A stretch of 47,993 bases of DNA, from positions 1-47,993 of the forward strand of contig JBBDTI010000003.1 in the NCBI GenBank assembly GCA_040904565.1, given 5' to 3'. Under the pieces are notes generated by a model. The model ran no database searches. It was not told the DNA's origin and saw nothing but the letters and a program-made list of their open reading frames with translations. The DNA is from Rhodothermales bacterium. GTDB taxonomy: Bacteria; Bacteroidota; Rhodothermia; Rhodothermales; VXPQ01. Position 1 is the first letter of the stretch. Every line of letters begins with the position of its first letter. Made by a program: the position numbers and the translations under genes. Positions 23,228-39,954 of the stretch are shown here, piece by piece.

Positions 23228-23481
23228 GGGATGTGCGATGCATCTAATCCAGGGACATCTGAAGATACTGGAGAGTTTACTCCCGCGCACGGTTCTTGGA
23301 CTCGCGGGAAGATTGCAATTGCGAAGGCCCGCCGAGGTCGGCCTGCACCTCGATCCGCATGGTTGGACGGAATCACGGACGGTCGCCGCGATCGCATGAC
23401 GTGAGCAAAAGGATTCCTTATCATGAGTCCGGAGCCGGTAAGCAGATCAGTAAGAGTGATGTCATGCAGACGGGACAGAGG

Positions 23482-25542
23482 ATGATGGACGAACGACGGC
23501 GTATTGTATCGCACAAGAGATCGAAGCAGTCAGCGGGCGGCGAACATGCGGCCGAGAGGGAGGGGATCCTCAGGCGCGGCCTGCCGGGTCGTTGGTTTCG
23601 CGTGCTGTCGGTCATTCTGACCACCCTCCTGGTACAGGGGTGCGACGTCCAGGACGACGCCGCTCCGCTGGAGGGCGAGCTTCCGAACATCGTGTGGATC
23701 ACGGGGGACGATCTGAGTCCGAATCTGGGGGCGTACGGCGACGAATTCGCCACGACACCGAATCTGGACCGGCTGGCTGAGGAGGGCGTCCGCTATACGA
23801 ATGCGTTCGCCACGGCGCCCGTTTGCTCGCCCGCGCGCTTCACCCTCATCACGGGCATCTACGCGACGTCCGCCGGCACGCAGGGGCTTCGCGCCCATGC
23901 GCCTATTCCGGACGACATCCACGGATTTCCGTCTTTCATGCGGGAGGTCGGCTACTACGCCACGAACAACGTAAAGACTGATTACAACACGGCCGACGAG
24001 CAGCGGCTGATCGATGAATCGTGGGACGAGAGCAGCGCCACGGCCCACTGGCGCGGTCGCGACGAGGGGCAGCCGTTCTTCAGCGTGTTCAACCTGATGC
24101 ACACGCACCAGAGCCGCATTTCCTTCCTGGACACGGAATTTGAGGAGCTCGAGGGCTTTCTCGGCCGGCACGACCCGGAGGAGGCACCCCTTCCGCCGTA
24201 TTACCCGGACGAATCGGAGATCCGGCAGACCGTCGCGCGCTATTACGACGCCGTCGAGGCCATGGACGCCCGCGCAGGCGAGATCCTGGCGCAACTGGAA
24301 GAGGACGGGGTCGCCGAGAATACGATCGTGATGTTCTACGGAGACCACGGCCGCGGACTCCCGCGCGGTAAGCGGGTCCTTTATGATTCGGGTCTGCGCG
24401 TGCCGTTTATCGCCTATTTCCCCGAACGATGGGAGCATCTGGCGCCGGCGGAGGCGGGATCCGTGACGGACCGGCTGGTCAGCTTCGTCGATTTCCCCTC
24501 CACGACGCTCAGTATGATCGGTCTCGACGTGCCGGACTACATGCAGGGGCAGGTCTTCCTCGGGCCGGATAGGGACGCACCTCGCGATCGCGTGTATGGC
24601 GCCCGCGATCGTGTCGACGAGGCGTACGACAAGGCGCGCTCCGTACGGGACGACCGATATCTGTATATTCGCAACTATAACCCGCATCGGTCCTGGAACC
24701 AGCCCGAGTATTTCTCGGATCAGGCGCCGATCCGCCAGGCCATCACTCAGCGGGCCGAAGCGGGCAATCTGAACGAAGACCAGCTGACCTACGCCGGCCC
24801 GTCGAAGCCGCACGAGGAGCTCTTCGACGTCGTCGCAGACCCGCATCAGCTCGATAATCTGGCCGGTTCGGAGGAGCATCAGGACGTACTGGCTCGGATG
24901 CGTGAGGCGCTCCACGACTGGCAGCTCGAGACGCACGACATCGGCTTCATGCCCGAAGGTCTGGCGATGCGGCTCAGCGAAGAACTCGGCCGGACGCCCC
25001 TCGAGTTTGCGGACGACGACGAGGTGTACCCGATCGAGCGCGTCCTGGAGACGGCCTCCCTGGTCGGCGAGTCCGGCACGGTGCCGGAGCTGACGGCGCG
25101 GATCGACGATCCGAACGCCGTCGTGCGGTACTGGGCCGCGGTCGGGCTCGACGCCGCCGATGCAACCTCGTCCGAGGCGATGTCCGCATTGCAGAACGCG
25201 CTCGCTGACGACGTACCGGAAGTTCGCATCGCTGCCGCGGGAGCGCTGGTCGACGTGAATGAGTCCGCGGAAGGACTCGACGTGCTGGCCGAGGCGCTGC
25301 GTTCCGACGACGCGAACGTCGTGCTCATGGCCTCTCGTACGCTGCAGCTGCTCGGTCCGAAGGCGGAGCCCGTGCATCCGGTAATGGAGGAGACACTGGC
25401 GCAGGCGCAGGACGATTCCGTTTACGGCATCAATGCCCTCTTCATCCGCTTTGCCCTCTCGCCCGTTCTGCGGCCCGAACGTGGTCCGACCGAGGTGATC
25501 GAGGGCCCGGGACGTGACATGGCTCCCGGAGACGAGGGATGA
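23482..25542 (+). CDS. Formylglycine-type sulfatase with C-terminal HEAT/PBS repeats (probable lipoprotein)
   Basis: PNIVWITGDD, CSPAR and GDHG..LPRGK; C-terminal VVRYWAAVGL / EVRIAAAGAL repeats; LVQGC lipobox. Start uncertain. Confidence 0.88.
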   Translation: MMDERRRIVSHKRSKQSAGGEHAAEREGILRRGLPGRWFRVLSVILTTLLVQGCDVQDDAAPLEGELPNIVWITGDDLSPNLGAYGDEFATTPNLDRLAEEGVRYTNAFATAPVCSPARFTLITGIYATSAGTQGLRAHAPIPDDIHGFPSFMREVGYYATNNVKTDYNTADEQRLIDESWDESSATAHWRGRDEGQPFFSVFNLMHTHQSRISFLDTEFEELEGFLGRHDPEEAPLPPYYPDESEIRQTVARYYDAVEAMDARAGEILAQLEEDGVAENTIVMFYGDHGRGLPRGKRVLYDSGLRVPFIAYFPERWEHLAPAEAGSVTDRLVSFVDFPSTTLSMIGLDVPDYMQGQVFLGPDRDAPRDRVYGARDRVDEAYDKARSVRDDRYLYIRNYNPHRSWNQPEYFSDQAPIRQAITQRAEAGNLNEDQLTYAGPSKPHEELFDVVADPHQLDNLAGSEEHQDVLARMREALHDWQLETHDIGFMPEGLAMRLSEELGRTPLEFADDDEVYPIERVLETASLVGESGTVPELTARIDDPNAVVRYWAAVGLDAADATSSEAMSALQNALADDVPEVRIAAAGALVDVNESAEGLDVLAEALRSDDANVVLMASRTLQLLGPKAEPVHPVMEETLAQAQDDSVYGINALFIRFALSPVLRPERGPTEVIEGPGRDMAPGDEG

Positions 25543-25574: not shown

Positions 25575-26717
25575 TCAATACAGGATCACGAATCCTCCGG
25601 CAGCATCCGCGTACGCCGTCGGCAGGCTCCACACCGGAACGTCCGGCGCGATCCCCGTCACGTCGGTGGGTCGTCCGTCGGCATCGATCAGGTGCCAGGC
25701 CAGCGAGCCGGCTTTATTCCACCCCATTCCCTCCGTCCACGCCACGAGCGTTTCGTTGCGACGATTACCCACGGCTACGGGGTGCTTACGCTGACCGGAC
25801 GCACCGGGCACGGCTTCAGAATTTACCGGAACGTCGAGGCGGGCGACGTAAATCTGTCCGTCGTTCTCCCACACTCCGAGCATGCGCTCTCCGGACTGTC
25901 GGATGGAGGCAGTGGACATGGGGCAGGCTTCGAGCTCCCATTCGTCGAGGCGCGCTCCGCGCGGCTTGACCTCGCCGGGCGGTACCGTCAAGAGCTGCAT
26001 GCCCCGGTGGATGCCGTCTTCGGCAGCGCGGTACAACAGGTATAACGTTCCGTCGCGATCCGCATACGCCCGCATGCCGCAGCATCCGCACGCGCCGGTG
26101 GGCTCTTCGAATGCCGGCGTCTCGCGTTCGAACGTGGCTCCATCGTCGTCCGACCGTGCAACCCAGACGCGTCGTCCAGCCTCACCTTCCGCGTCGCCAC
26201 GACCGTGCCAGGCGACGTATACGGTGCCCGACCGATCGGCCGCGACACTCCCGCCGCCGTCGAGTCCGTCTGCAAACGTCAAGACGTTTCTCTGCGGTTC
26301 AAATGCTACGCCCATTTCGTCACTCCGCGTATACAGCATCGGCGTCGCGCCGTCCGGGCCGCGCGGTATGGCTTTTTGCGAGCCCATCCAGGCGACGTGG
26401 ACGCGCCCTTCTCGTCCAATTGCTAGATGTGCGCCGCGCACCGTGCCCAGGGCGACCGCACTGCCGGGCTCGCTGTTGACGCGGAGAGGAGTCGACCACT
26501 CTTCGGAGCTCGTTTGGCGGCGTACGTAAAAGATGTCGCCTGCGGCCGGGTCCCCTTTGTAGTATACGAGATGCACTGTATCGTCGTCCACCAGGGCCTG
26601 TGGCTGGATGCCGCCGTGAGGGACGCGTTCGAGGACGACCTGCGTGTCGGTACGGTCTCCGCAGCCGATGAGTACGATCAGAAGGAGGACGCTTCGGAGG
26701 GACTTCAGTGTGTGCAT
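25575..26717 (-). CDS. BNR/Asp-box (sialidase-like) beta-propeller lipoprotein
   Basis: Lipobox LIGC, Asp-boxes YTRSDE.G.AF and ARSDDDGATF, and CGCC and W...ACP cysteine motifs. Confidence 0.8.
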   Translation of the reverse strand: MHTLKSLRSVLLLIVLIGCGDRTDTQVVLERVPHGGIQPQALVDDDTVHLVYYKGDPAAGDIFYVRRQTSSEEWSTPLRVNSEPGSAVALGTVRGAHLAIGREGRVHVAWMGSQKAIPRGPDGATPMLYTRSDEMGVAFEPQRNVLTFADGLDGGGSVAADRSGTVYVAWHGRGDAEGEAGRRVWVARSDDDGATFERETPAFEEPTGACGCCGMRAYADRDGTLYLLYRAAEDGIHRGMQLLTVPPGEVKPRGARLDEWELEACPMSTASIRQSGERMLGVWENDGQIYVARLDVPVNSEAVPGASGQRKHPVAVGNRRNETLVAWTEGMGWNKAGSLAWHLIDADGRPTDVTGIAPDVPVWSLPTAYADAAGGFVILY

Positions 26718-26826
26718 GGGGCGGTTCGAGTTGAAAGATGAGCGCCTGTGCGACCGGTCCGATACGAGAAATTCGTAATCAAGAAGCACGTACGGGTTAG
26801 ACATCGGATTCTCTCGTGAGCTCACG

Positions 26827-27972
26827 TCAGGCCGCCGGTAGAAAGCGCACGCATACGGGCGAGGGCACGTGCAGCACCTGGCCGGTACGCGTAAGCCGGC
26901 CGCTGCCGACATCGATCGAGAAGACGACGACGGTGTCCGAATTCTGGTTGGCGGCGAGGAGGTAGCGGCCGGTGGGGTCGAGGGCGAAGTTTCGCGGCGT
27001 CCGGCCGCCCGTACTCACGTGCTGCACGTACGAGAGCGTTCCGTTTTCCGGGTGGATGGAAAAAACCACGATACTGTCGTGCCCGCGGTTGGAGCCGTAG
27101 AGGAAGCGCCCGTCGGCGGACACGTGGATGTCGGCGGTGGTGTTGGCGCCGTCGAAACCATCCGGCAGCGTCCCGACGGTCTGCCCGGTCTGCAGCGTGC
27201 CGTCGGCATACGAAAATGTGGTGATGGTCGAGTCGAGCTCGTTGATGGCGTAGGCTCGGGTCCCGTCGGGATGGAACGCCAGATGACGCGGACCCGCGCC
27301 GGGGGCGACGGACGCCGTGCCGGCCGGCACGAGTTCGCCGGCGTCGATGCGATAGCCCACCACCCGATCGATGCCGAGATCGGCGGCAAAGGCTCGGTCG
27401 CCGGAGGGCCCGACGACGACGCAGTGGGCGTGCGGGCCTTCCTGGCGGCTTTCGTTGGGGCCGGACCCCTCGTGCTGCGCCACGTCTGATGCCTCGTCGA
27501 GTCGCCCGTCCGCCTCTACGGGGAAGAGGGCCACGTTGCCTCCGAGATAGTTGGCGACGAGCACGTAATTTCCGTCGGGCGTCACGGAGACGTAGCAGGG
27601 CGCGCCTCCCTGCGAAGGCTGCCGGTTGAGGGGCGCGAGCCGCCCCTCCCGGTTGACGGCGTACGCGTAGATGCCTCCGCCGGGCTGTCCCTCGAACTCC
27701 GTCGTCTCGCTGACGGCATAGAGATAGCGGCCGCTCGGATGCGCGGCCAGAAAGGATGGATTCTCGATGAGTCCGGTCACGCCTCGTACTTCGAGCGCAC
27801 CGGTCTCGTCATCGAAGACGCATCGGTAGATGCCTTCGCTTTCGTCGCGCGTATACGTGCCGATGTAGAGGGTATTCATAGTGCGGTGCTTGAGTGAAGG
27901 TGGTCGTCCTAGGGGTGCGAGCACGGCCACTCCGGCCATTCGAAGAAACCGGCGCCTGGTTGCGTCCGTCAT
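26827..27972 (-). CDS. Lactonase (6-phosphogluconolactonase Pgl/YkgB-type propeller) with a Tat-like leader
   Basis: LYIGTYT, NPSFL, ANYLGG, RQEGPHAH, GAGPRH, SNRGHDS and PRNF; leader TRRRFLR. Confidence 0.9.
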   Translation of the reverse strand: MTDATRRRFLRMAGVAVLAPLGRPPSLKHRTMNTLYIGTYTRDESEGIYRCVFDDETGALEVRGVTGLIENPSFLAAHPSGRYLYAVSETTEFEGQPGGGIYAYAVNREGRLAPLNRQPSQGGAPCYVSVTPDGNYVLVANYLGGNVALFPVEADGRLDEASDVAQHEGSGPNESRQEGPHAHCVVVGPSGDRAFAADLGIDRVVGYRIDAGELVPAGTASVAPGAGPRHLAFHPDGTRAYAINELDSTITTFSYADGTLQTGQTVGTLPDGFDGANTTADIHVSADGRFLYGSNRGHDSIVVFSIHPENGTLSYVQHVSTGGRTPRNFALDPTGRYLLAANQNSDTVVVFSIDVGSGRLTRTGQVLHVPSPVCVRFLPAA

Positions 27973-28060
27973 GACGGTGCCTTGTTGGAGAATGGGATGG
28001 AGAATACGTTGGAGGTCAAGTCGGAGCACATGCTGAAATTAGGCTGGAACCGGGCTGGGA

Positions 28061-29098
28061 TCAGGTCATGATCTGGAGGCGGGATTCGTGATCCACCTGC
28101 AGGAGCGCTCCGTGTCCGGAGACGGGCAAGGTAGCCGTCCATCCGTCCAGCTGCACGTGCAGGTCGGCCTGCTCCGGCACACGCACGTCGAGCTCCGAGA
28201 GATCGTCCGCCCAGCGCCCGTGGTGCTGCTTGTAGGCCTTCTGTGCATAATATACGGCCATCAGCGTATCGCGGGCACGCAGGGTTGGATCGGTCCGAAA
28301 CGACGCCTCGCCCGGCTGTGACCGGGAGAACTGGACGTAGCCCCAGCGCTCCGGCCGGTGCATGTCGACGACGCCCTGCGGCGACCAGACCCAGTTATGC
28401 TCGGGAACGCCGGACTGCTTCCGGTAGGCGTTATCGACGATCTCGTGCTCCCAGTGGACGCGGGAGAAATTGATGCGCCACCGATCGCCGTCCGCGGGCG
28501 GTGCGTAGCCGTGCCGGGACAGTCCGTCCCAGGGTAGTGCCAGCTCGACGGACCAACCGATGTCTGTGTCGTGGGGCGCATTGAGCGTTCCCTCGACGTG
28601 CACGGCCGTTCGGAGACCGGGAAGGTGGGTCGGCGAGTAGACCGGCCCGCCATCCCGATACGGTTTTTCCAGGGTCAGCTCCCAGATCGTGTTCAGTGCG
28701 TTGATTTCCAGCTCGTAGTAATTGTGGTTGTCGCCGTCCGGATCGATGAAGACCTCGAAGTCCTTGTCGAGGTAGATGACGCTGTTCGGCTCGGTGATGG
28801 TGCCCCATACGTGGGGGTCATCCATCCGGGCGGCGACGTACAGAAAGTCGTCGTCCCACCGCATGGCCACGCGCGTGTCGAAGCGAGGTTCGGGGCCGCG
28901 TTCGCCTTCGATGTCGACGAACGGCTCGGTCCACGTTGCGTCGGACCAGGCCGGATCGTCGAGTCTGCCGTCGATGATCGGCGGGTTCGGCGTGAAGTGG
29001 CAGACGTAGTGCCTCGGCGTGACCGACGCCATGCGCTCCCAGTCCGTCGAATCGACATCAGCCGGAAGACCCCAGGTCGGCTCCGTTATTCGTTCCAT
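28061..29098 (-). CDS. Carbohydrate-binding family 9-like (DOMON-like) protein
   Basis: IDGRLDDPAW, WDDDFLYV, DFEVFIDPDGD..NYYELEIN, WSVELALPW, WRINFSR and NWVWSPQG..DMHRPERWG. Confidence 0.82.
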   Translation of the reverse strand: MERITEPTWGLPADVDSTDWERMASVTPRHYVCHFTPNPPIIDGRLDDPAWSDATWTEPFVDIEGERGPEPRFDTRVAMRWDDDFLYVAARMDDPHVWGTITEPNSVIYLDKDFEVFIDPDGDNHNYYELEINALNTIWELTLEKPYRDGGPVYSPTHLPGLRTAVHVEGTLNAPHDTDIGWSVELALPWDGLSRHGYAPPADGDRWRINFSRVHWEHEIVDNAYRKQSGVPEHNWVWSPQGVVDMHRPERWGYVQFSRSQPGEASFRTDPTLRARDTLMAVYYAQKAYKQHHGRWADDLSELDVRVPEQADLHVQLDGWTATLPVSGHGALLQVDHESRLQIMT

Positions 29099-30336
29099 GC
29101 CGGCATCGAAATTCCGTTCAGGTCCCACACGACCCGCCCCGCCCGCAGCGTCAGCTCCGCTTCGAGCTTCCGGTCGCCGTGCAGCACGACGTCGTCCACG
29201 TCGGCGTATCCGAATTCCCCTTCATGGAGGCGAAAAACGGCTACGTCGGCCTCCGCGCCGACGTCGAGATTTCCGAGCTCGGTCCGCTGAATGACCTGTG
29301 CGGGCGTCCAGGTTGATGCGCGGATCGCATCGGGCAACGACATCCCGAGGCTGAGAAATTTCGACATCACGTTGGCCATGTCTTTCATCCCCCCGTTCAT
29401 GCTTCCGGTATGCAGGTCCGTGCTGATGACGTCCGGCCAGAAGCCGGCCTGCGTGGCGGGGACGGCGGCCGAATAGAAGAAGCTCCCGCCGCCGTGTCCG
29501 ACGTCGAACACGATACCTCGCTCCTGGGCGTCAAGGACAAAAGGTTGGAAGCGACCTGCCGCGTCCACCACCGATTCGCGCGTATCCAGGTTGGCGTAGG
29601 CGTGCGTGAAGATGTCACCTGGACGCAGGTGATCGAAGAAGAGCTCGCGGATCGGTAGCTTCGGCTCGGCTCCCCCGAAATCGACCATGACCGGTACGCC
29701 GGCTTGCTCTCCGGCGGCGACCGCCCGGTCGGTCGGCGTCCAGTCGTGGCCCATGTAATGCGCGAGCTTGACGCCGACGACGATCTCCGGATACTTCTCG
29801 ACGGCCATCGCCGTCAGTTTCGGATCCATGTCCCGCAGGTTTTGCTCGACGGCACCGCCCTTCATGCCGGATCCTACGATGTTTACGAAAGCGAGCACGC
29901 GGGTGTCGGCATGGTTGACGGTCTGCTCGACGAACGTCCGCATGTTGCGCCATCCGGCGCTGCCGACGTCGACGGCCGTCGTCACGCCGGCGCGGAAGGT
30001 AAAGGCGTCAGGCGGAACGCTGGTAAACGAGTTGCTGATGTACGCGTCCGGTTCCGTACCGTGAAAGGCGTGCACGTGCAGGTCGATGATGCCGGGCGTG
30101 ACGTAGAGTCCGGATGCGTCGACGACGCGGTCGGCGCGCGCTGCGTCGATGTCCGGGGACACGTCCGCGATCCGTCCGTCGGCGATGCCGACGTCCATCA
30201 CCCCGTCGATCCCGTTCTTCGGGTCGATGACGTGGCCGTTCTCGATCAAGAGGTCGAGGTCCTGGGCCGCAGCCGGCATGGCGAGCAGAAGGAGTGTGAA
30301 GAGGAGTGTGAGGAGGCGTGTAGAGGATCGATTCAT
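29086..30336 (-). CDS. Amidohydrolase/deacetylase (COG3964, dihydroorotase-like) with a Sec signal
   Basis: Signal ends PAAA-Q; NGHVIDP, PGIIDLHVH, GVTTAVDVGSAG, GVKL, GDIFTH, FDVGHGGGSF and ISTDLH. Confidence 0.88.
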   Translation of the reverse strand: MNRSSTRLLTLLFTLLLLAMPAAAQDLDLLIENGHVIDPKNGIDGVMDVGIADGRIADVSPDIDAARADRVVDASGLYVTPGIIDLHVHAFHGTEPDAYISNSFTSVPPDAFTFRAGVTTAVDVGSAGWRNMRTFVEQTVNHADTRVLAFVNIVGSGMKGGAVEQNLRDMDPKLTAMAVEKYPEIVVGVKLAHYMGHDWTPTDRAVAAGEQAGVPVMVDFGGAEPKLPIRELFFDHLRPGDIFTHAYANLDTRESVVDAAGRFQPFVLDAQERGIVFDVGHGGGSFFYSAAVPATQAGFWPDVISTDLHTGSMNGGMKDMANVMSKFLSLGMSLPDAIRASTWTPAQVIQRTELGNLDVGAEADVAVFRLHEGEFGYADVDDVVLHGDRKLEAELTLRAGRVVWDLNGISMPAWNE

Positions 30337-30436
30337 TCGCTGTACGTCGTGTAAAGTCCGGTGATCGTGAGCACGTATGCAGCGCCGGCGGCATAACGAG
30401 CGGCAAGCCCGGCGCACGCCGTCCGTCATCGCGCGG

Positions 30437-31639
30437 TCAGACGGAGGCTTCTTCGAGGGCCTCGCGCAGCCGAGCCGCTACGGTTCGTTCTTCCCCGGGA
30501 CGCATCATCCAGACCGTGACGCCGATGCCCTCGTCACCTCCCGCCGTTTCGATGGACGGGTGGCCGCTGCGGAGGCGGTCGCGGATTTCGTCGGGAGATA
30601 CCGGGATGCGATCCCGGTCCCACGTAATATCGAGGGAGGGCGTATGGTTTGCGATCTCGGGGACGTGAATCTCGGGATGCGCGCCCTCTACTTCGGCGAC
30701 GGCATCCCGGATGTGCTCGATCTGCCGCTGCCACTGCCGCCATTCGGCGTCGAAGTCTTTTTCGAGATAGCGCTCGAGCGCGACCAGCATGCCGAGCACT
30801 TCTTCCTTGTTCACCTTCATGCCGCGCCCGATCGTGTTGCCGCGCGGCGGGGCGTGGAGGCGCGCCGCGGCGATGAGGTCCTCGCGGCCGAGGAGGAGTC
30901 CGGCGCTCTGCGGACCTCGGAGCGCCTTTCCGCCTGAAAACGCGACGAGGTCGTATCCCATGTCGGTGTACTTCCACAGGTTCTCGACCGGCGGGACGTC
31001 GGCCGCGCAATCGTTGAACGTCGGGATGCCGTGCCGGCGACCGGTGGCGACGACGTCCTCGTGCGTGATGTCGGTCCCGTTGTAGGCATTCAGGACGAAC
31101 AGCATCGCGGTTCGTTCGTTGACGGCCTCTTCCATCTCCTCGAGCGTCTCTACCTCTATGATCTCCGCGCCTGCGTTCGTGAGGGCGTGCACGTATCCCA
31201 CGAAGTGCTCCGGCTTGGGCATCACGACCTCATATTTGAGCCCGGTACGGTCGGGGAGCCGCGCGACCTTATCCTCATCCATCCCGCACATGACGCCGCC
31301 CATGCCGAGCGTCATGGCGCTGAAGGCGCCGGACGTGACGGTGGCCGACTCGCAGCCGAGCAGCTCGGCGATGCGGGCGCCGACCTTGTCCTGGATCTCA
31401 TCCAGGGCCACGTACCGGGAGCGGGCATAATCGATGGCCTCGACGACCTCGTCCGGCATGAGCGAGCCGCTGAGGGAGGTATACGTCCCGGCCGCGTTGA
31501 TGAAGGTTCGCAGTCCGAGTTCGTGGAAATAGTCGCGAGGAGGCGTGCGGAGTGCTGCGGATCCGGCGGCACCCCCGACCCATCCACCCAGAAAAGGAAG
31601 CGTTCCGAGATGCTTCAGTACCGTTCGACGAGACAGCAT
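30437..31639 (-). CDS. SelA/DgaE-like PLP-dependent enzyme with a Tat signal
   Basis: Tat SRRTVLK; INAAGTYTSLSGS, DCAAD, FSGGKALRGPQSAG (PLP Lys) and IGRGMKVNKEE. Confidence 0.88.
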   Translation of the reverse strand: MLSRRTVLKHLGTLPFLGGWVGGAAGSAALRTPPRDYFHELGLRTFINAAGTYTSLSGSLMPDEVVEAIDYARSRYVALDEIQDKVGARIAELLGCESATVTSGAFSAMTLGMGGVMCGMDEDKVARLPDRTGLKYEVVMPKPEHFVGYVHALTNAGAEIIEVETLEEMEEAVNERTAMLFVLNAYNGTDITHEDVVATGRRHGIPTFNDCAADVPPVENLWKYTDMGYDLVAFSGGKALRGPQSAGLLLGREDLIAAARLHAPPRGNTIGRGMKVNKEEVLGMLVALERYLEKDFDAEWRQWQRQIEHIRDAVAEVEGAHPEIHVPEIANHTPSLDITWDRDRIPVSPDEIRDRLRSGHPSIETAGGDEGIGVTVWMMRPGEERTVAARLREALEEASV

Positions 31640-31735
31640 GGTTGTAAAAAAACGATGAGCAGGATGGACGGACAATGAATCGTGCGCGCTAGGCGCGGAG
31701 TGCGACGCAGAGATGCGGGAATTATCAACGGCCTT

Positions 31736-32194
31736 TTAGAGAGCCGCGACGCAGTCGATCTCCACGAGCGAGTCACCCGGCACGCCGCCATAGGTGGCCA
31801 CCGTCGTTCGAACGGGAGGATGGTCGCCGAAACGGCCGCGGTAGACCTCGTTCATCCCGTCGTAGTCTTCCAGATCGTGCAGATAGACGTTGACCTTCAA
31901 GACCTTCTCCATGGACGACCCGGCTTCTTCGAGCTCCTTCTGCAGTTCGTTGAGCACGTGGTCGGTATGGGCCTTGATGTCGCCCTCGAAATGGGCGCCC
32001 TTGCCCGCGACGTACACTGTTCCATTGTGGATGGTATGGCCTGAGAAGAGCGGCACGTCGTCGTCCGTGACCACATTGCCGGAGGTTCGGGCGGGTCCGG
32101 CCTGGGCCGCCGCGGCCGATCCCGCCCCGAAGGACGCGAGAAAGGCGGCGGCTTTCTTGACGAACGAGCGGCGGTTTCTGTGCGTTTCTTTCAT
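31736..32194 (-). CDS. RidA/YjgF family imine deaminase with a Tat signal
   Basis: Tat NRRSFVK plus Ala-rich h-region; VLKVNVYL, MNEVY, PPVRTTV (catalytic Arg) and LVEIDC. Confidence 0.9.
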   Translation of the reverse strand: MKETHRNRRSFVKKAAAFLASFGAGSAAAAQAGPARTSGNVVTDDDVPLFSGHTIHNGTVYVAGKGAHFEGDIKAHTDHVLNELQKELEEAGSSMEKVLKVNVYLHDLEDYDGMNEVYRGRFGDHPPVRTTVATYGGVPGDSLVEIDCVAAL

Positions 32195-32220
32195 GGCGGC
32201 GAAGACGTTAGATGGATGGC

Positions 32221-33636
32221 TTATTCGGTGCGCGAGGTACGTCGTGGAGAGAGCGAGAGCTTCCAGATGGCGGCCTCGCTCCCACCATGTTCGAGTACGT
32301 ACAGATCGGAGCCGACGAGCTCGGCATCCACGGGACCGCGAAATCCTTCGGCGATACGCTGCGCCCGGACAATGTAATGGTCTGTATGCGGATTGTGGAA
32401 GAGCGTAAGATGAATGAGATCGGCGCCGAGGTTCGAGAGGCGTCCGAGGAGCACGGACTGCGTGCCGTCCGTCCAGCTCAGCACAAAACCGTCGCCGCGA
32501 TAAGGCAGTGCCAGCGTGGTGTCCGTGTCGAAGACGAGGCCGAGGGGAGAGCGGTGCGCCGTAAAGGTCCCCACGGCAACACCCGTCTCGTCGCCCTTCA
32601 CGACGCGACCGGTTTCACGATCTCGGTAATAGTTGGCATCGGGACCGATGTTGGCTACCGGCGGAGTGAACGTGACGTTCTCAGGCCGCGGGGGAAAGTC
32701 CGGGTCGTTGTAGAAGTATTCCTGTGTATAGGCGAGGCTATAAGGATTGATGAACGGATCGTTCTCCGGATCCGGGTGGAAGTCCGCGTACTGCTGGGGG
32801 TTGTCGACGCCGCCCATAACCCACGGGAAACCATAGTGGTGTCCTTCGCGCACCCAGAACATATCCTCCGGATGGTCATAGTCGCCCGAGTTCGAGACGG
32901 CGAACAGGTGTCCGGCCGAAGAAAACGCCATATCGTACGCGTTACGGATGCCGCGGGCATACAGATAGCCCGCCGCCGTCAGCTCGTCGAGGTCGTTCGG
33001 CAGGTGCAGGTTCTCGGCATCGATGGGAACGCGGAGAACGGATGCCGTGAGCGGCTCTTCGCGCGCATCCGGATAGGCTCCCCCGTTGTCCTGTACCTCC
33101 CCGTGATCGGTCCGCGAGCCGCTCGTGACGTAGAGATGCCGTTCGTCGGGGCTGACGACCACCGCGTTGAAGCCGTGGTCGAAGGCGATCTGCACCGTGC
33201 CGAAGGAATCGGTTTCAAAAACGGTCGTCCACCTGCGGCTGCCGTCGGGTTGCAGACGGCCTCGGACGAGCCTCCCTTTCGTGCCCTTCCCTCCGTTCAC
33301 GGCCACGTTTCCGCAGAGGTAGATGGACGCTCCGTGTATGGCGAGGCCCTGCAGGCGCGTGATGCCGTGATCGACGGCCGTGGCCACGCGCTGCGGCGAC
33401 GCTCCCCGCGTGGCGGGAATGGAATAGAGGTCACCGTCGATCGTGATGGCCAGGAACGTACCGGACGTGGGATCCAGCTGCAGCCGGACGCTTCGCGGCG
33501 GTGCGTCCGTAAAACGTACTATCGTGATGCCGTCGACGAGTACGTGTGGTTGACCCACGGCCTGCCTGGCTGCCGATGCGCAGAACAACGTGCACACGAG
33601 CAGCGCGAGCATCTGCAATATGGTCGCTTCCCGCAT
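32221..33636 (-). CDS. Secreted glucose/sorbosone dehydrogenase (PQQ-dependent sugar DH)-like beta-propeller
   Basis: Start at MREAT (TGATG overlap with the upstream gene); signal peptide; SGSRTDHGE, YARGIRNAYD, GHHYGFPW and HRSPLGL. Confidence 0.8.
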   Translation of the reverse strand: MREATILQMLALLVCTLFCASAARQAVGQPHVLVDGITIVRFTDAPPRSVRLQLDPTSGTFLAITIDGDLYSIPATRGASPQRVATAVDHGITRLQGLAIHGASIYLCGNVAVNGGKGTKGRLVRGRLQPDGSRRWTTVFETDSFGTVQIAFDHGFNAVVVSPDERHLYVTSGSRTDHGEVQDNGGAYPDAREEPLTASVLRVPIDAENLHLPNDLDELTAAGYLYARGIRNAYDMAFSSAGHLFAVSNSGDYDHPEDMFWVREGHHYGFPWVMGGVDNPQQYADFHPDPENDPFINPYSLAYTQEYFYNDPDFPPRPENVTFTPPVANIGPDANYYRDRETGRVVKGDETGVAVGTFTAHRSPLGLVFDTDTTLALPYRGDGFVLSWTDGTQSVLLGRLSNLGADLIHLTLFHNPHTDHYIVRAQRIAEGFRGPVDAELVGSDLYVLEHGGSEAAIWKLSLSPRRTSRTE

Positions 33637-34979
33637 CAAACGGCGTCCGGGTGCGGATGCACCCAGGGGTCGCGGTAGGGTCTGGCGAGCAGTGCATTGG
33701 CTTCTTCGTCGCCGACGACGCGGCCGGACTCGGCGTCCCACTCGAGCGTGCGGCCGAGCTGGAGAGCGATGTTCGCCAGGATGCAGCTTGCTGCCGAGAT
33801 GTGCCCCTCTTCGATGTCCGCGACGGGACGGGAGCGGTCGTCGACGGCCTGCAGCCAGTCGAGCATGTGCCTGCGTATGGCCGGCGCCACGTGGCGTTCC
33901 AGATCCTCCTCGGTCCGATCCTCCGGATACTCGTCGAGCTCGTAGACCACGTCGCCGTGCTCGGGCTCCCCGTCGCCCACCGGGATGAAGTCGTACTGGT
34001 GTACGCTGAGCTTGAGCGTACCGTTCTCGCCGTACAGGGTAGCGCCCCAGGGATATTCGGGATCCGCGGGCGTGCCCCAGGCGCGGTGCTGCCAGAGGAC
34101 CGGGAACTCCTCGAATTCGAACGTAGCGGTCTGCGTGTCGGGCGTATTGGCGATGCTGTCGGGGTGCATCAGGATGCCGCCGGAGGAGGAAATTCGGTTC
34201 GGCCAACCCAGGCCGAGCATCCATCGCACCATATCGAGCATGTGCACGCACATGTCGCCGATGATCCCGTTGCTGTATTCCATGAAGGCTCGCCAGCCTC
34301 GAGGGTGGACGACCTCGTTGTATGGAATTTTCGGTGCCGGGCCGGCCCACATCTCGTAATCCAGGTAGGAGGGCGGCTGGATGTGCGGCGGATTGCTGCG
34401 CGTCCGCATGTGGTAGTAGCAGTACGTCTCGACCATCCGTATTTTCCCCAGGCGTCCCGTGCGGATGTACCGGTCGCGGGCGTCGATGAGGTGGGGCGTG
34501 CTGCGGCGCTGCATGCCGACCTGCACGACGCGGCCGTACTTGCGCGCGGCGGCCACCATGGCCTGTCCCTCGACGACATCGACACCGATCGGCTTCTGCA
34601 CCCACACGTCGATGCCCGCCTGGCAGGCTTCGATCATCGGGAGGGCGTGCCAGTGATCGGGCGTCACGATCAGCACCAGATCGAGGTCGTTCTGGTCGAG
34701 CATCGCCCGGTAATCCGTGAAGGTAGCCGGGCGGTTTCCCGATGCCTGTCGTTCCGCGACGATCGCCGCCGCACCGTCGAGCATCTCACGGTCGACGTCG
34801 CATAGAGATACCACCTCTACGGGCGCGACCTGGATGAGGCGGAGAAGGTCCGTCTTTCCATACCAGCCGGATCCTATGAGTCCGACGCGCGGTCCCTGAC
34901 GTGCGAAGTAGCTCAGGTCCGGCAACGAGCCGGCGGCAGCGAGCGCGGCGCTCGCCTTTAAGAAGTCCCTACGTTTCAT
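33636..34979 (-). CDS. Tat-exported Gfo/Idh/MocA family oxidoreductase
   Basis: Tat MKRRDFLK; GLIGSGWYG, TPDHWH, VQKP, QVGMQRRS and DMCVH. Confidence 0.92.
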   Translation of the reverse strand: MKRRDFLKASAALAAAGSLPDLSYFARQGPRVGLIGSGWYGKTDLLRLIQVAPVEVVSLCDVDREMLDGAAAIVAERQASGNRPATFTDYRAMLDQNDLDLVLIVTPDHWHALPMIEACQAGIDVWVQKPIGVDVVEGQAMVAAARKYGRVVQVGMQRRSTPHLIDARDRYIRTGRLGKIRMVETYCYYHMRTRSNPPHIQPPSYLDYEMWAGPAPKIPYNEVVHPRGWRAFMEYSNGIIGDMCVHMLDMVRWMLGLGWPNRISSSGGILMHPDSIANTPDTQTATFEFEEFPVLWQHRAWGTPADPEYPWGATLYGENGTLKLSVHQYDFIPVGDGEPEHGDVVYELDEYPEDRTEEDLERHVAPAIRRHMLDWLQAVDDRSRPVADIEEGHISAASCILANIALQLGRTLEWDAESGRVVGDEEANALLARPYRDPWVHPHPDAV

Positions 34980-35137
34980 GGCATCATTGTGGATTGATCG
35001 TTCGGTGTCTCGGACAGAGGACGCTCTCTCCGGCATATCGGAAAAACGCGGGCGCGGATTCCCCGTGCCTCTTGCTTTAGAGAGCCGGACTGCCTAGATA
35101 CATTCGAGGTTTCTATTCACAACTATATTATACGGAT

Positions 35138-36067
35138 ATGCGAATCCGATACCTCGCCGTTTTGACGGCTCTCCTCACGTGTCTGACGGCGTCCCCTCTT
35201 TCCGCGCAGCTTATTTCGGAAGACGAAATGCTCTTTCTGACCCAGGAATGGGAGGGGGAGCGGTATCCCGACGGGCGTCCGATGGTGTCGGCCGATATCC
35301 TCGAGCGTATGGAGATCGTCTCGATCGAGGAAGCCTGGGCGGTGCTTCGCCGGCACGGCTACCACAGCCAGTTCGCGGGGGAATGGATGATGATCCACGA
35401 GGACGAGCCTATCGTAGGGCGCGCGCTTACCGCGCTTTACATGCCTAACCGTCCGGAGCTGCAGGAACGCATGCTGGAACGAGGGCATGCGGCCGGACAG
35501 GTAGGTCCCATGAACTCCTGGCCGATCGACGCGCTCGAGCAGGGCGACGTGTATGTGGCCGATGGATACGGAAAGATCGCCGACGGGACGCTGATCGGCG
35601 ATAATCTCGGCAATGCGATCTATGCGAACTCGGGCAACGGCGTCGTCTTCGACGGGTCGCTCCGTGATCTGGAGGGTCTGGAGGAGATCGAGGGCTTCAA
35701 CGCGTTCGTTCGGGGCTGGCATCCGTCGTACATCCAGGAGATGATGCTGGGTGGACTCAACGTGCCGATCCGTATCGGTGAAGCGCACGTGCTGCCGGGC
35801 GACGTCGTACTCGCCAAGAGGGAAGGCGTGATCTTCATTCCCCCTCACCTCGCGGAAGAGGTCGTCGAAACGGCCGAGATCGTAACGCTCCGCGACCGGT
35901 TCGGACATCAGCGGTTGCGTGAGGGTACCTACACGCCCGGACAGATCGATACGCGGTGGACCGAGGAGATCGAGCGAGACTTCTACGGATGGCTGGAGGC
36001 GAACATCGACGAACTCCCGGTGCCGAGTTCGAGGATTCAGGAAATCCTCGAAGAGCGTAACTGGTAG
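35138..36067 (+). CDS. RraA/HMG-aldolase-like protein with a Sec signal
   Basis: Signal ends LSA-Q; GRALT, GDVYVAD, IGDNL, GVVFDGSLRD and VLPGDVV...EGVIFIP. Confidence 0.85.
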   Translation: MRIRYLAVLTALLTCLTASPLSAQLISEDEMLFLTQEWEGERYPDGRPMVSADILERMEIVSIEEAWAVLRRHGYHSQFAGEWMMIHEDEPIVGRALTALYMPNRPELQERMLERGHAAGQVGPMNSWPIDALEQGDVYVADGYGKIADGTLIGDNLGNAIYANSGNGVVFDGSLRDLEGLEEIEGFNAFVRGWHPSYIQEMMLGGLNVPIRIGEAHVLPGDVVLAKREGVIFIPPHLAEEVVETAEIVTLRDRFGHQRLREGTYTPGQIDTRWTEEIERDFYGWLEANIDELPVPSSRIQEILEERNW

Positions 36068-37481: not shown

Positions 37482-39890
37482 TTACAGGGTAAAATCATGC
37501 GTCTCGCCCTGGTGCAGTTCTACGACCGTATCCCGAAAGCCGATCTCTGCGGCGGGTGAGGGGCCGCGGTCGAACGTCACGGAGAGTTTATCGTCGGTCA
37601 GACGGACGGACAGCCAGTGGCCGCGGTACCGAAGGCGAAGGCGAACGTCCGACAGTTCATACGGAAGGAGAGGATTAAACCAGAGCACCTCGTCGCGCAT
37701 TTCGAGGCCCGTATGCACGCGCTGGATAAGGTCGACGGTTCCGGCCATGGCACCCAGGTGGATGCCCTCGTGGGTGGTTCCCCCCTGGATGTCGTCGACA
37801 TCGCTGCGCAAGGCGTCCCGAAAAAGCTGCCAGGCTCCGCCTCGATCGGCCCGGGCGAGGACCCACGAGTGGACGACCCGGCTGAGCGTGGATCCGTGCG
37901 ACGTGCGACGGATGTAGTACTCGATATTTTTCGGAATGACGGCGGGGTCGAATACGTAGCCCATGTGGTCGAAAAGGCTCACTAGCTGCTCGGATGAGAA
38001 GAGATAGAACAGCATGAGCACGTCGGCCTGCTTGCTGGCCTTATAACGATTGACGTCGTCGTCCTCCGCTTCGAGAATCCTATCGAGGCGCTGAATGTCG
38101 CCGTATTCTTCGCGGTAGCCGTCCCAGTCAAACTCTTCCAGCTTCTCGTATCCCTCGAACTGACTGATGATGTCGTCCGCATGGAATGGGACGAACATTT
38201 TGCTCGAGATCTGCCGCCAGCGGACGAGCTCTTCGTCGGCCAGGTCGATGCCGGCACGGAGATGCTCCCGACGCGTTTCGTCGAGAAGGTCGATTACGCT
38301 GCAGGCCGTCCGGAGAAGCCAGACGGCCATCACGTTGGTGTACGCATTGTTGTTCAATCCCGGCTCGTCCGCCCACGGATACCCCGTGTGAAACTCATCC
38401 GGGCCCATCACGCCGCGAATTTCATAGCGGTCCCTATCGGCGTCGTAGGTTGCAATGCTAGCCCAGAACCGGGCCAGCTCCAGCAGCATCTCGGCACCGT
38501 AGTGGGAGAGGAACTCCATGTCTCCCGTCGCCTGGTAATACTGCCATACGTTATAGGCGATGGCGACGTTTACGTGGCGCTGAATGTTGGTCTCGTCTTC
38601 GACCCAGCGCCCCGATCGGGGATTCAGGTGAAGCACCTGACTCTCCTCGCTGCCGTCGCTTCCGCTCTGCCACGGATACATCGCGCCGTCGAAGCCCTCC
38701 TCGGCGGCCAGAACCCGGGCTTCCGGCATGCGGCGGTACCGGTACATCAGCAGTGAACGGGTGAGCTCCGGGAGGCGGAGCGTGAGAAAAGGAAAGATGA
38801 AGAGCTCATCCCAGAACACGTGTCCCCGATATGCTTCTCCGTGCCAGCCCCGTGCGGGCACGCCTACGTCGCGATCGATCGTGTTGGGAGACGCCGTCTG
38901 AAGCAGGTGGAAAATGTGGAGCCGCAGCATGAACTGGGTTTCCACGTCGCCGTCGGAGAGCACGATGTCTGCATGGCTCCAGAGCTGTTCCCATTCCTCC
39001 ATATGGTCCTCGAGCAGCGACGTGAAGGTGGCGGCGCGCCGGATCCCCTTGCAGGCCTGTTTCCGCGATTCGCTGATGGCGAAATCTTTCGACGTATGGA
39101 TTGCGGCAATCTTTTCGACGCGAAGCGGCTTGTTGCGACGGCATGCAACGGTGAGGATCTGGCCCGCGGAGGCGTCTGTCCGATCGCGCGTGCGGTCTAC
39201 GGCTATGGGATCTTGGCCATCGAAGACGCGCGTCCGCGCTGCCTGCGTCATTCGTATGCGTGACTGGTTCGTACGCACGGTAAGATAGAAGGCGTCGTCA
39301 CCTTCGAAGCCGCATTCGAGGACCTCGAGGTGTTCGTTGTTCAGGTCGCTGTAACGGTCGACGTTCGCGTTCACGACGCCGCCGTCTATCGATGACCGCA
39401 GTTCTATCTCCCCGGTCCAGTCATGCGAGGTCAGCGTCCACTCGATACCGGTGAGGTGAGGGCTTCTCATGTGCACGAACCGGCGCGTAGCCAGGGTAAA
39501 CCTTCGCTCCTCCGCGTCCGCGAAACGGACGTGCCGGTGCAGTACCCCCCGGTAGACGTCCAGGCGCTGCGAGAATTCGTCGATCCGGACGTCGTCGATG
39601 TGAAACCAGTCTCCGCCCACCGGTCGGAACGTAAGCGGAAGCCAGTTGGGGAAGTTTACGAGGTCCTCGTTTCCCAGAACGTGACCTTCGACGGGCGTCT
39701 CGAGCCGGTTGTAACCGCCGGCGAGATACGTTCCGGGGTAATGGGATGCGCCGGCACCGGCCTCCTCGAATGCACCGCGCGTCGCGATCTGCCCGTTGCC
39801 GAGCGTGCACAGGGCCTCCCGCAGCGGTTGCTGCTCGGGATCCCAATCGGTATAGACCAGCTCCCATTCTTTGATCTCGCGTTTCGCCAT
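37482..39890 (-). CDS. Glycoside hydrolase family 65 (trehalose/maltose-type phosphorylase)
   Basis: REALCTLGNG, ARGWHGEAYRGHVFWDE, GAMYPWQS, GPDEFH, KQADVLM, HGSTLS and GIHLGAMAG. Confidence 0.93.
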   Translation of the reverse strand: MAKREIKEWELVYTDWDPEQQPLREALCTLGNGQIATRGAFEEAGAGASHYPGTYLAGGYNRLETPVEGHVLGNEDLVNFPNWLPLTFRPVGGDWFHIDDVRIDEFSQRLDVYRGVLHRHVRFADAEERRFTLATRRFVHMRSPHLTGIEWTLTSHDWTGEIELRSSIDGGVVNANVDRYSDLNNEHLEVLECGFEGDDAFYLTVRTNQSRIRMTQAARTRVFDGQDPIAVDRTRDRTDASAGQILTVACRRNKPLRVEKIAAIHTSKDFAISESRKQACKGIRRAATFTSLLEDHMEEWEQLWSHADIVLSDGDVETQFMLRLHIFHLLQTASPNTIDRDVGVPARGWHGEAYRGHVFWDELFIFPFLTLRLPELTRSLLMYRYRRMPEARVLAAEEGFDGAMYPWQSGSDGSEESQVLHLNPRSGRWVEDETNIQRHVNVAIAYNVWQYYQATGDMEFLSHYGAEMLLELARFWASIATYDADRDRYEIRGVMGPDEFHTGYPWADEPGLNNNAYTNVMAVWLLRTACSVIDLLDETRREHLRAGIDLADEELVRWRQISSKMFVPFHADDIISQFEGYEKLEEFDWDGYREEYGDIQRLDRILEAEDDDVNRYKASKQADVLMLFYLFSSEQLVSLFDHMGYVFDPAVIPKNIEYYIRRTSHGSTLSRVVHSWVLARADRGGAWQLFRDALRSDVDDIQGGTTHEGIHLGAMAGTVDLIQRVHTGLEMRDEVLWFNPLLPYELSDVRLRLRYRGHWLSVRLTDDKLSVTFDRGPSPAAEIGFRDTVVELHQGETHDFTL

Positions 39891-39954
39891 TATCCAGGGT
39901 CGATCTAATCAGGCCTGCTGCACGTTCGTTTCGGGAACGAGCCGATCGCGTTCG

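Follow-up and report, generated by a model that had tools for sequence, protein, structure and literature searches.

The window analysed here is a stretch of 47,993 nucleotides from a Rhodothermales bacterium (assembly GCA_040904565.1, contig JBBDTI010000003.1, positions 1 to 47,993), and the subject is a cluster of nine genes at positions 25575-36067 that appears to encode a catabolic pathway outside the cytoplasm. Eight packed minus-strand genes encode, from upstream to downstream, a Gfo/Idh/MocA oxidoreductase, a GSDH-like beta-propeller, RidA, a SelA-like enzyme dependent on pyridoxal 5'-phosphate (PLP), an amidohydrolase, a CBM9-like protein, a lactonase, and a BNR-like protein; one divergent plus-strand gene encodes an RraA-like protein. 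PLP lyases, RidA, and RraA-like aldolases are textbook cytoplasmic enzymes, and an earlier note on this DNA proposed that an exported pathway had been built here from such families, a proposal supported by the co-occurrence of the genes in other genomes and by the conservation of their leaders. It is very likely that the locus represents a conserved exported pathway. The specific reading advanced here, at a probability of about 0.5, is that the locus encodes a periplasmic, non-phosphorylative route that would take an N-acylated 2-amino-2-deoxy sugar to pyruvate. The favoured substrate, held with less confidence, is an N-acetylhexosamine or its C1-oxidised form (e.g., GlcNAc1A).

Conservation of the cluster and of its export signals

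With one genome scanned per species, relatives of the SelA-like enzyme are encoded at 587 or more places; the best 80 were taken with 10-kb flanks, which are full in 46. These loci come from Flavobacteriaceae, Cyclobacteriaceae, Saprospiraceae, Cytophagales, Bacteroidales, and Rhodothermales records; they are kin to one another and the counts below are not independent, although several Bacteroidota families are spanned. A tblastn search of the 80 loci with the window proteins recovers RidA, adjoining the SelA-like gene, in 72 of them; an amidohydrolase is present in 70 and an RraA-like protein in 27. The genes of the cluster do co-occur in other genomes, as the earlier proposal required, and the combination of co-localisation and export signals is beyond chance because both recur across many genomes. 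The window's own types of the remaining enzymes are rarer, with GSDH in 5 of the 80 loci (beside the amidohydrolase or RidA), CBM9 in 3, and the PF10282 lactonase in 2, homologues of this lactonase adjoining the module in L001, L065, L083, and L084. An SBF transporter is present in 30 of the 80, a YjgF-like protein in 38, and an SMP-30/gluconolactonase lipoprotein in 16.

When the open reading frames (ORFs) of the loci were clustered all-against-all and the families annotated by Pfam, a recurrent same-strand order emerged, consisting of CBM9_2, a fusion of GSDH with cytochrome c, the amidohydrolase, SBF (bile-acid/Na+ symporter family), the RraA-like protein, RidA, the SelA-like enzyme, and a second, YjgF-like (PF14588) lipoprotein. 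Among the 46 full-flank loci, the amidohydrolase is found in 44, RidA in 39, a GSDH-type gene in 33, CBM9 of any family in 27, the YjgF-like protein in 26, SBF in 21, the RraA-like protein in 20, an SGL (SMP-30/gluconolactonase) lactonase in 13, and SusC and SusD in 10 each. The idea of an exported pathway put forward in the earlier note is supported, but the note missed the SBF/BASS symporter, the second exported YjgF-like lipoprotein, and the cytochrome c fusions. This lipoprotein, a second member of the Rid superfamily, lies after the SelA-like gene (e.g., at 11143-11820 of L024) and also occurs in the source genome (contig C54, L090); in four Arenibacter loci the RidA gene is absent and the YjgF-like gene is present.

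The richest example is a supercluster of ~30 kb in genome G001 (contig C24, L084/L085), in which SusC/SusD accompany two GSDH types, a pair of SelA-like genes, and three amidohydrolases. The genes run in the order SBF, RraA-like, RidA, SelA-like, amidohydrolase, PF10282 lactonase, SusC, SusD, and an FG-GAP protein, followed by the GSDH-cytochrome c fusion, GSDH, YjgF-like, CBM9, the second SelA-like gene, and two further amidohydrolases, with a GntR/FCD regulator further along, near the cluster. Other genomes (G481, G390) hold 3-4 SelA-like paralogues, and together with the supercluster these suggest diversification for several substrates. The module is a patchy, accessory trait, found in 7 of 121 genomes of the order and in 10 of 401 genomes of a phylum sample (own genome included, E <= 1e-60). 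The closest named relatives among the fetched loci are Rhodothermales metagenome-assembled genomes (MAGs). The source genome measures 4.0 Mb in 95 contigs and is ~95% complete, and DNA of the locus is present in sediment metagenomes.

Export signals, called from motif, hydrophobicity, and conservation in homologues, are found on eight of the nine proteins, with the motifs standing in the sequence as the earlier note quoted them and the CBM9-like protein alone lacking one. Twin-arginine translocation (Tat) motifs occur in the Gfo protein (KRRDFLK), RidA (NRRSFVK), the SelA-like enzyme (SRRTVLK), and the lactonase (TRRRFLR); Sec-type leaders in the amidohydrolase, the GSDH-like protein, and the RraA-like protein; and a lipobox (LIGC) in the BNR protein. 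Each of the four proteins with a twin-arginine motif also has the hydrophobic stretch expected of a Tat substrate, TatC is encoded in the source genome, and all four are predicted to be Tat-exported. Only the Gfo leader reaches the curated Tat hidden Markov models (HMMs) of Pfam and TIGR.

The leaders are kept in homologues at the related loci, which indicates that they are not artefacts of start-codon choice, the check on which the export claim had depended. The RR motif with a hydrophobic stretch is found in all 70 RidA homologues and in 81 of 86 SelA-like homologues, and a hydrophobic N-terminal leader is present in every amidohydrolase (69/69), RraA-like protein (27/27), GSDH-cytochrome c fusion (42/42), CBM9_2 protein (29/29), and SGL lactonase (16/16), and in 37 of 38 YjgF-like proteins. 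In the last three families, a lipobox-like cysteine closes several of the leaders listed. The RR motif is kept by the PF10282 lactonases of all four Rhodothermales relatives named above (4/4). Among the 120 best SelA-like homologues, 101 have the motif at the N-terminus, and the other 19 are mostly gene calls that start inside or after the leader.

The wider SelA-related family comprises 759 clusters (50% identity) at E <= 1e-30, and the RR motif occurs in 51 of the 150 best clusters inspected. A quick tree was built from 102 of 151 sequences (those of 355-470 aa), with motif labels from a regular expression that misassigns a few rows in both directions. A split with a Shimodaira-Hasegawa-like approximate likelihood ratio test (SH-aLRT) value of 95 places 29 of the 34 RR-motif rows on one side with 11 others, some of them truncated or with Sec-type leaders, and the remaining 5, at least 2 of them false positives of the expression, on the other side with 57 rows that lack the motif. 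Leader conservation and this split point to the exported SelA-like forms being an old and diverse subfamily, neither a local oddity nor a start-codon artefact.

The enzymes and the proposed route

The reactions, their order, and the substrate are read here from gene content, synteny, export signals, and active-site patterns. Aldose oxidation at C1 to the lactone would be carried out by the GSDH dehydrogenase, presumed to depend on pyrroloquinoline quinone (PQQ), with the Tat-signal Gfo oxidoreductase also available in this cluster. The Tat-signal lactonase would open the lactone to the N-acyl-aminoaldonate, from which the Sec-signal COG3964 amidohydrolase would strip the acyl group to leave the aminoaldonate. 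The Tat-signal SelA/DgaE-like PLP enzyme would then eliminate the 3-hydroxyl to form an enamine/imine, and the Tat-signal RidA would hydrolyse this to the 2-keto-3-deoxy-aldonate and ammonia. Finally, the secreted RraA-like protein would cleave the 2-keto-3-deoxy-aldonate to pyruvate and a C3 aldehyde, and an SBF/BASS symporter, which other genomes encode within the cluster and this one on a different contig, would import the keto acid. The sequence of oxidation, lactone opening, de-N-acylation, PLP elimination, RidA action, and aldol cleavage that the earlier note had set out fits the recurrent partners, namely the GSDH-type genes, lactonases of two folds, and the RraA-like protein, as well as the loss of the phosphate-binding arginines of DgaE. 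The absence of phosphotransferase system (PTS) and kinase domains, also claimed earlier, holds among the 29 window proteins scanned by domain search, with a few smaller ORFs outside the scan; the scanned proteins likewise include no SSS transporter.

The SelA-like enzyme (30437-31639, minus strand; Pfam SelA, 37.7 bits) is a fold-type I PLP protein with more than 8000 close homologues scored, which databases label 'selenocysteine synthase' or 'aminotransferase class V-fold'. Its best solved and closest characterised relative is Salmonella DgaE (7lc0; E 1.2e-32, 26% identity), followed by Cap15 (8t7j; E 1.9e-26), and these two are also the best Foldseek matches of the predicted model (7lc0, TM 0.70, E 9.5e-25; 8t7j, TM 0.73, E 1e-24). 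The PLP lysine is kept, with Lys238 in SGGK aligning to the lysine of DgaE SGAK, and it is present in all 50 residue patterns listed (the 25 commonest per group, from 102 representatives); the carboxylate arginine is kept as Arg252, aligned to DgaE Arg226. By contrast with these, DgaE His162/His163 align to Tyr186/Asn187, and DgaE Arg301/Arg332/Arg346 align to Ser335/Ala366/Trp377 in a C-terminal part of the alignment that is less certain. Use of such DgaE-specific residues to separate exported from cytoplasmic members was tried and dropped, as they are not conserved across the wider family. According to the active-site account in the DgaE paper (PMC9529869), the His162/His163 pair is strictly conserved in DGL sequences, the Arg301/332/346 cluster was placed at the 6-phosphate by manual docking, and the H163A mutant releases an unprotonated enamine. 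Replacement of the phosphate-cluster arginines would fit a non-phosphorylated substrate, as expected without ATP or a PTS, and the lack of a His163 equivalent may make RidA necessary, which we infer to be the reason for the near-constant pairing of the two genes. The protein is thus a putative ammonia-lyase acting on a non-phosphorylated 2-amino-3-hydroxy acid.

The amidohydrolase (29086-30336, minus strand) is assigned to the COG3964 type by NCBIfam PRK09237 (437.6 bits against a cut-off of 371) and has the solved relatives 8je0, 8wzy, 2ogj, and 2ics, sharing HxH, GxK, GHG, and STDLH motifs with the first three; no chain named as a D-aminoacylase is found among the solved structures matching it at E <= 1e-10. 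RidA (31736-32194, minus strand; Ribonuc_L-PSP PF01042, 71.6 bits against 27.3), the candidate enamine/imine deaminase, keeps the active-site Arg position, its 'PVR' aligning to 'PAR' of YabJ, and scores 65.1 bits against TIGR00004, under the cut-off of 106.25. The RraA-like protein (35138-36067, plus strand; PF03737, 73.4 bits against 24.5) has a conserved N-terminal extension of ~70 residues and the solved relatives 5x15 and 3noj, the latter a 4-hydroxy-4-methyl-2-oxoglutarate/4-carboxy-4-hydroxy-2-oxoadipate (HMG/CHA) aldolase with which its RD and GD motifs align; against TIGR02798 (HMG/CHA aldolase/oxaloacetate decarboxylase) it scores 60.5 bits, under the cut-off of 304.5. The RidA Arg, the RraA-like RD/GD motifs, and the metal-ligand motifs of the amidohydrolase presumably play their usual roles, and the RraA-like protein is a putative metal-dependent 4-hydroxy-2-oxo-acid (2-keto-3-deoxy-aldonate) aldolase. 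Since the SelA-like enzyme, RidA, the RraA-like protein, and the lactonase all fall below the specific NCBIfam cut-offs, they are to be regarded as relatives, not orthologues, of the named enzymes.

At the sugar-oxidising front end, GSDH-type proteins are the commonest partner after the core and are often fused to cytochrome c, a domain that the window protein lacks. This GSDH-like propeller (32221-33636, minus strand; PF07995, 31.4 bits against 25), a putative PQQ-type aldose dehydrogenase, has no sequence match among solved structures. The best Foldseek matches of its low-confidence model (predicted local distance difference test score, pLDDT, 58.6) are soluble PQQ glucose/aldose dehydrogenases (E 2e-10), which provides weak confirmation of the assignment. 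In the G001 cluster a canonical GSDH (E 4e-107) accompanies the GSDH-cytochrome c fusion. No pqqC was found in the ~95%-complete source genome, but control genomes likewise gave no match, so that this negative is uninformative. Elsewhere in the window (17560-19833) lies a propeller of the PQQ-dependent alcohol/glucose dehydrogenase type with an inserted cytochrome c domain.

Two folds that are unrelated to each other fill the lactonase slot: the Rhodothermales loci use PF10282, and 16 others encode an SMP-30/SGL protein. The window representative is a 7-bladed beta-propeller (26827-27972, minus strand; Lactonase PF10282, 419.9 bits against 21.7) that remains under the cut-offs of both 6-phosphogluconolactonase models (PRK11028, 178.2 bits against 370; NF050136, 235.1 bits against 500). 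Eight loci with neither a GSDH-type gene nor a GSDH-cytochrome c fusion (L004, L005, L007, L013, L018, L021, L041, L070; mostly Bacteroidales/Cytophagales MAGs) have a Tat-signal DUF362 protein beside the amidohydrolase, and in five of the eight a Tat-signal FAD_oxidored protein follows the SelA-like gene. Non-orthologous replacement at the oxidation and lactonase slots argues that both steps belong to the pathway.

A second exported module in the same genome bears on the last steps. Contig C30 (L082, 5700-12500) encodes a Sec-signal paralogue of the RraA-like protein, a Tat-signal MR_MLE (enolase-superfamily) protein with the leader TRRSFLAKSAAAG, and an SBF symporter 60% identical to the flavobacterial SBF; a signal-bearing FAD_oxidored protein and a sulfatase are its neighbours. 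Many characterised enolase-superfamily enzymes are acid-sugar dehydratases that yield 2-keto-3-deoxy acids. The MR_MLE dehydratase is found at E <= 1e-90 in 7 of the 401 phylum-sample genomes (own included). Of 7 loci taken from the 6 other Bacteroidota genomes, 6 have an RraA-like gene next to it, 3 include SBF, and all 7 keep the RR motif. No record of Tat-exported enolase-superfamily dehydratases was found in the literature searched. An RraA-like protein thus repeatedly follows an enzyme expected to make a 2-keto-3-deoxy acid, which supports its role as an aldolase and that of SBF as a keto-acid importer.

Taken together, the two modules allow a broader reading that is tentative, with the odds somewhat against it. 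Some Bacteroidota, Rhodothermales among them, might possess two parallel exported front ends carrying sugar-acid catabolism all the way down to pyruvate outside the cytoplasm, with the de-N-acylase, DgaE-like lyase, and RidA serving amino-sugar acids and the MR_MLE dehydratase serving ordinary aldonates. Both might converge on the secreted RraA-like aldolase and the BASS-family keto-acid importer, and PQQ/cytochrome c dehydrogenases might feed the electrons of the first oxidation directly into the respiratory chain. Such a scheme would constitute a periplasmic, kinase-free counterpart of the non-phosphorylative Entner-Doudoroff route, and an exported bacterial RidA would gain its first physiological role.

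Strength of the reading and its alternatives

Several observations weigh against the amino-sugar route. Many of its proposed steps are optional across the loci, as seen from the counts for the RraA-like protein (27/80), SBF (30/80), and lactonase (16/80 plus 4 Rhodothermales loci), and the GSDH-type gene is absent from 13 of the 46 full-flank loci. Conservation with the module does not extend to the Gfo and BNR genes, the window CBM9-like protein has no signal, and the proposed route does not account for the fate of the C3 aldehyde or for the YjgF-like and CBM9-like proteins. No marker specific to amino sugars recurs, GH20, NagB-like, and chitin-related genes being absent from the 25 commonest neighbour families; no RNA datasets containing the locus are listed, and the leaders were called from motifs and hydrophobicity. 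The SelA-like enzyme scores well under the cut-offs of both the DgaE equivalog (NCBIfam, 145.8 bits against 600) and TIGR01437 'DgaE family' (167 bits, E 5.4e-49, against 385.3), and Cap15, an O2-/PLP-dependent enzyme with different chemistry, is equally close in fold. Across the wider SelA-related family the DgaE-specific residues vary whether or not a member is exported, and the assignment of the phosphate cluster depends on docking and lies in the less certain part of the alignment.

The periplasmic substrates of the module might instead be N-acyl-D-amino acids or free beta-hydroxy amino acids (e.g., N-acetyl-D-Ser/Thr, beta-hydroxyaspartate, or D-amino acids derived from the cell wall), with a deacylase, a PLP dehydratase, and RidA yielding a 2-oxo acid, the RraA-like protein acting as an oxaloacetate decarboxylase or aldolase, and SBF importing pyruvate. 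In favour of this, the invariant core consists only of the amidohydrolase, the PLP enzyme, and RidA; acyl-(R)-carboxylates are reportedly substrates of COG3964 enzymes, NCBIfam names indicate oxaloacetate decarboxylation as a further activity of RraA-like aldolases, and 13 of the 46 full-flank loci have no GSDH-type gene. The enzymes of the ong pathway for oxidised chitin, as outlined in PMC9537276 and PMC12017989, also descend from D-aminoacylase and D-amino-acid deaminase types. However, amino-acid degradation leaves no role for the GSDH-type (33/46) and CBM9-like (27/46) proteins or the two lactonase folds found in the same-strand block, and in 10 of 46 loci the module has a SusC/SusD pair at its side; this alternative is considered unlikely. 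A different assignment of the central enzyme, as a Cap15-like O2-/PLP-dependent oxidase or decarboxylase and not a beta-eliminating lyase, is less probable again. From a sugar-linked alpha-amino acid such an enzyme would produce an imine or amide; with RidA hydrolysing the imine, the end product would not be a 2-keto-3-deoxy acid. The match to Cap15 in fold is as good as that to DgaE and its sequence match is also close (E values as given above), O2 is present in the periplasm of an aerobe, DgaE His163 is absent, and RidA also partners amino-acid oxidases (as outlined in PMC5053998); nevertheless, an intermediate of the 2-keto-3-deoxy acid type is indicated by the secreted RraA-like protein and by the parallel module that combines such a protein with a dehydratase and SBF.

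It is slightly more doubtful still that carbon catabolism is not the purpose of the module, which would serve instead to scavenge nitrogen (e.g., by releasing ammonia from amino-sugar acids) or to detoxify or recycle an envelope component (e.g., by remodelling an N-acylated cell-surface sugar). Ammonia is among the products of the proposed chemistry, the module is patchy in the order and phylum samples, and a periplasmic L-amino-acid oxidase of Chlamydomonas with a RidA-like subunit scavenges ammonium, as outlined in PMC5053998. The RraA-like protein, SBF symporter, and SusC/SusD neighbours suggest carbon uptake instead, and the GntR/FCD regulator near the G001 cluster also speaks against this possibility. 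Finally, the nine genes might form no single pathway, being a chance grouping of envelope enzymes, or the leaders might not be export signals and the enzymes might act in the cytoplasm. The window is indeed rich in exported enzymes (among them a sulfatase, a PQQ dehydrogenase, DUF1080 proteins, and a second Tat-signal Gfo), the Gfo and BNR genes of the cluster lack the conservation of its other members, and the curated Tat HMMs recognise a single leader. Core synteny in 70-72 of 80 loci from several families and the almost universal conservation of leaders largely refute this explanation, which is very improbable; the grouping of 29 of 34 RR-motif sequences on one side of a deep split from most forms without the motif (quick tree, SH-aLRT 95) also speaks against it.

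Local genes, related systems, and significance

The nine genes and their domains, as first described, are borne out by Pfam and NCBIfam. The Gfo and GSDH-like genes overlap by 1 nt and the start of the CBM9-like gene overlaps the amidohydrolase stop by 13 nt; the intergenic gaps are 26 nt (GSDH-like/RidA), 96 nt (RidA/SelA-like), 100 nt (SelA-like/amidohydrolase), 88 nt (CBM9-like/lactonase), and 109 nt (lactonase/BNR), and 158 nt separate the divergent Gfo and RraA-like genes. Promoter and terminator scans of the locus gave counts not above those of shuffled sequence.

Membership of the Gfo and BNR proteins in the pathway, as the earlier note had it, is not sustained by the comparison. The Gfo protein (33636-34979, minus strand; GFO_IDH_MocA domains, with TAT_signal at 27.5 bits against the Pfam cut-off of 22.7) has matches in only 2 of the 80 loci (tblastn; 26-28% identity), several kb from the SelA-like gene and not adjacent, and no homologue of the BNR protein was found in any of the 80 by the same search. 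The latter (25575-26717, minus strand), the last gene of the operon, is a BNR-like lipoprotein with weak BNR_4/BNR_2 matches below cut-off, and its ESM Atlas neighbours are BNR_2/sialidase-family clusters of sialidase fold. The Gfo protein is probably a relative of glycoside 3-dehydrogenases, with 142 bits against the NCBIfam BT_2158 (glycoside 3-dehydrogenase) family (under the cut-off of 750) and best solved structures named 'dehydrogenase' (8tdf/8tdh, E 1.5e-28). Its assignment as a GH109 alpha-N-acetylgalactosaminidase, which would imply N-acetylgalactosamine (GalNAc), was dropped in view of these matches. The two genes share the operon but are window-specific additions, which may free the sugar from a glycoside.

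The CBM9-like protein (28061-29098, minus strand; Pfam CBM9_1, 45.1 bits) is homologous to the CBM9_2 protein of flavobacterial clusters (E 2e-15), and its homologues in L001, L083, and L085 carry a hydrophobic N-terminal segment. Its own missing leader could reflect leader loss, piggy-back export, or a non-exported form.

Other genes of the window provide a local setting for the cluster. A second Tat-signal Gfo/Idh/MocA protein, an SDR protein, and two DUF1080 '3-keto-disaccharide hydrolase' proteins (4663-6003, 6152-6964, 7077-8234, 13545-15437) look like a periplasmic 3-keto-glycoside (oxidative glycoside cleavage) system, and the Gfo gene of the cluster may belong functionally with this set. 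The 673-aa protein encoded at 15444-17465, in which a DUF7133-like part is joined to a cupredoxin (SoxE/plastocyanin-like) domain at the C-terminus, may add a further redox enzyme to the exported set. The sulfatase encoded at 23296-25542 combines an SGSH_C domain with HEAT repeats at its C-terminus, and sulfatases adjoin the module in 11 of the 80 loci. At 37482-40716 a GH65 glycoside phosphorylase is followed by a HAD hydrolase (beta-phosphoglucomutase-like); the GH65 N-terminus has no visible leader, and the two resemble an ordinary cytoplasmic-type disaccharide phosphorylase pair beside the exported cluster.

The closest known chemistry is that of the cytoplasmic ong pathway of Pseudoalteromonas prydzensis, which acts on oxidised chitin (GlcNAc1A) by means of the deacetylase OngB, the PLP deaminase OngC, the RidA protein OngD, and KdgK (as outlined in PMC9537276 and PMC12017989); the deacetylase, deaminase, and an essential RidA take GlcNAc1A to 2-keto-3-deoxygluconate (KDG), according to the account in PMC9537276. 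As far as these accounts go, the logic is shared, with an amidohydrolase-superfamily de-N-acetylase followed by a PLP deaminase and RidA yielding a 2-keto-3-deoxy acid, acetate, and ammonia. In the same outlines, a cytoplasmic location is predicted for OngB, OngC, and OngD, which act after an SSS transporter (OngIT) has brought the substrate into the cell, whereas the deacetylase, PLP enzyme, and RidA carry export signals here. KdgK phosphorylates the ong product as outlined there, and here there is no kinase but an RraA-like protein and an SBF symporter. By their descriptions the enzymes also differ in type, OngB being D-aminoacylase-like and OngC a putative D-amino-acid deaminase, as against the COG3964 and SelA/DgaE types of this locus.

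Other known systems share single steps. DgaE has the same PLP lysine and carboxylate arginine and the same succession of elimination and aldol cleavage to pyruvate as is proposed here, but it is cytoplasmic, acts on a 6-phosphate delivered by a PTS, and is coupled to an aldolase of the KDPG type, not an RraA-like one. The COG3964 amidohydrolases Atu3266 (2ogj) and EF_0837 (2ics) belong to the same family and are likewise paired with a SelA-related PLP enzyme; known COG3964 examples are not known to have a signal peptide and reportedly lie beside PTS or cytoplasmic aldolase genes (TIGR03583 description; Ornelas et al. 2013). Soluble PQQ glucose/aldose dehydrogenases (sGDH, Asd/YliI) with lactonases offer the same combination of a signal-bearing GSDH propeller and a lactonase. 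To our knowledge, the periplasmic part of known aldose-oxidation systems goes no further than the aldonate or ketoaldonate that the cell then takes up, whereas deacylation, deamination, and probably C-C cleavage would also be periplasmic here. The HMG/CHA aldolase and the RraA-like pyruvate aldolases/oxaloacetate decarboxylases (3noj) share the RraA fold with its RD and GD motifs, but HMG/CHA aldolases are cytoplasmic enzymes of aromatic (protocatechuate) degradation, in contrast to the signal peptide and N-terminal extension seen here. Cap15, from capuramycin biosynthesis, acts on a sugar-linked beta-hydroxy-alpha-amino acid and is as close in fold to the SelA-like enzyme as DgaE; it differs in being a cytoplasmic biosynthetic monooxygenase-decarboxylase with no RidA, amidohydrolase, or export context.

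In the full-text literature searched, no account was found of a DgaE-like enzyme being exported, of a bacterial RidA with an export signal in a cluster of this kind, or of RraA-like aldolases being secreted, a scope that leaves aside the supplementary tables of PMC9537276 and PMC4433059. The main text of the latter, a paper on Rid-family genomics, contains none of the terms 'signal peptide', 'periplasm', 'twin-arginine', or 'SelA'. For a Rid protein outside the cytoplasm, the nearest precedent is the periplasmic amino-acid oxidase of Chlamydomonas with its RidA-like subunit, as outlined in PMC5053998. The chemistry and folds are known; what is new is the compartment, the enzyme set, and the end-game.

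Cultured strains of Flagellimonas, Arenibacter, Saonia, Ohtaekwangia, and Ulvibacterium carry the module, and the hypothesis is thus directly testable. If it is true, a conserved operon moves central catabolic steps, including the cleavage of C-N and C-C bonds, into the periplasm, where RidA would protect or speed an extracytoplasmic metabolism. A function would be assigned to the large family of SelA-like proteins. For marine and sediment Bacteroidota, it would provide a route for the use of amino sugars or of chitin products oxidised by lytic polysaccharide monooxygenases (LPMOs), with consequences for carbon and nitrogen cycling.

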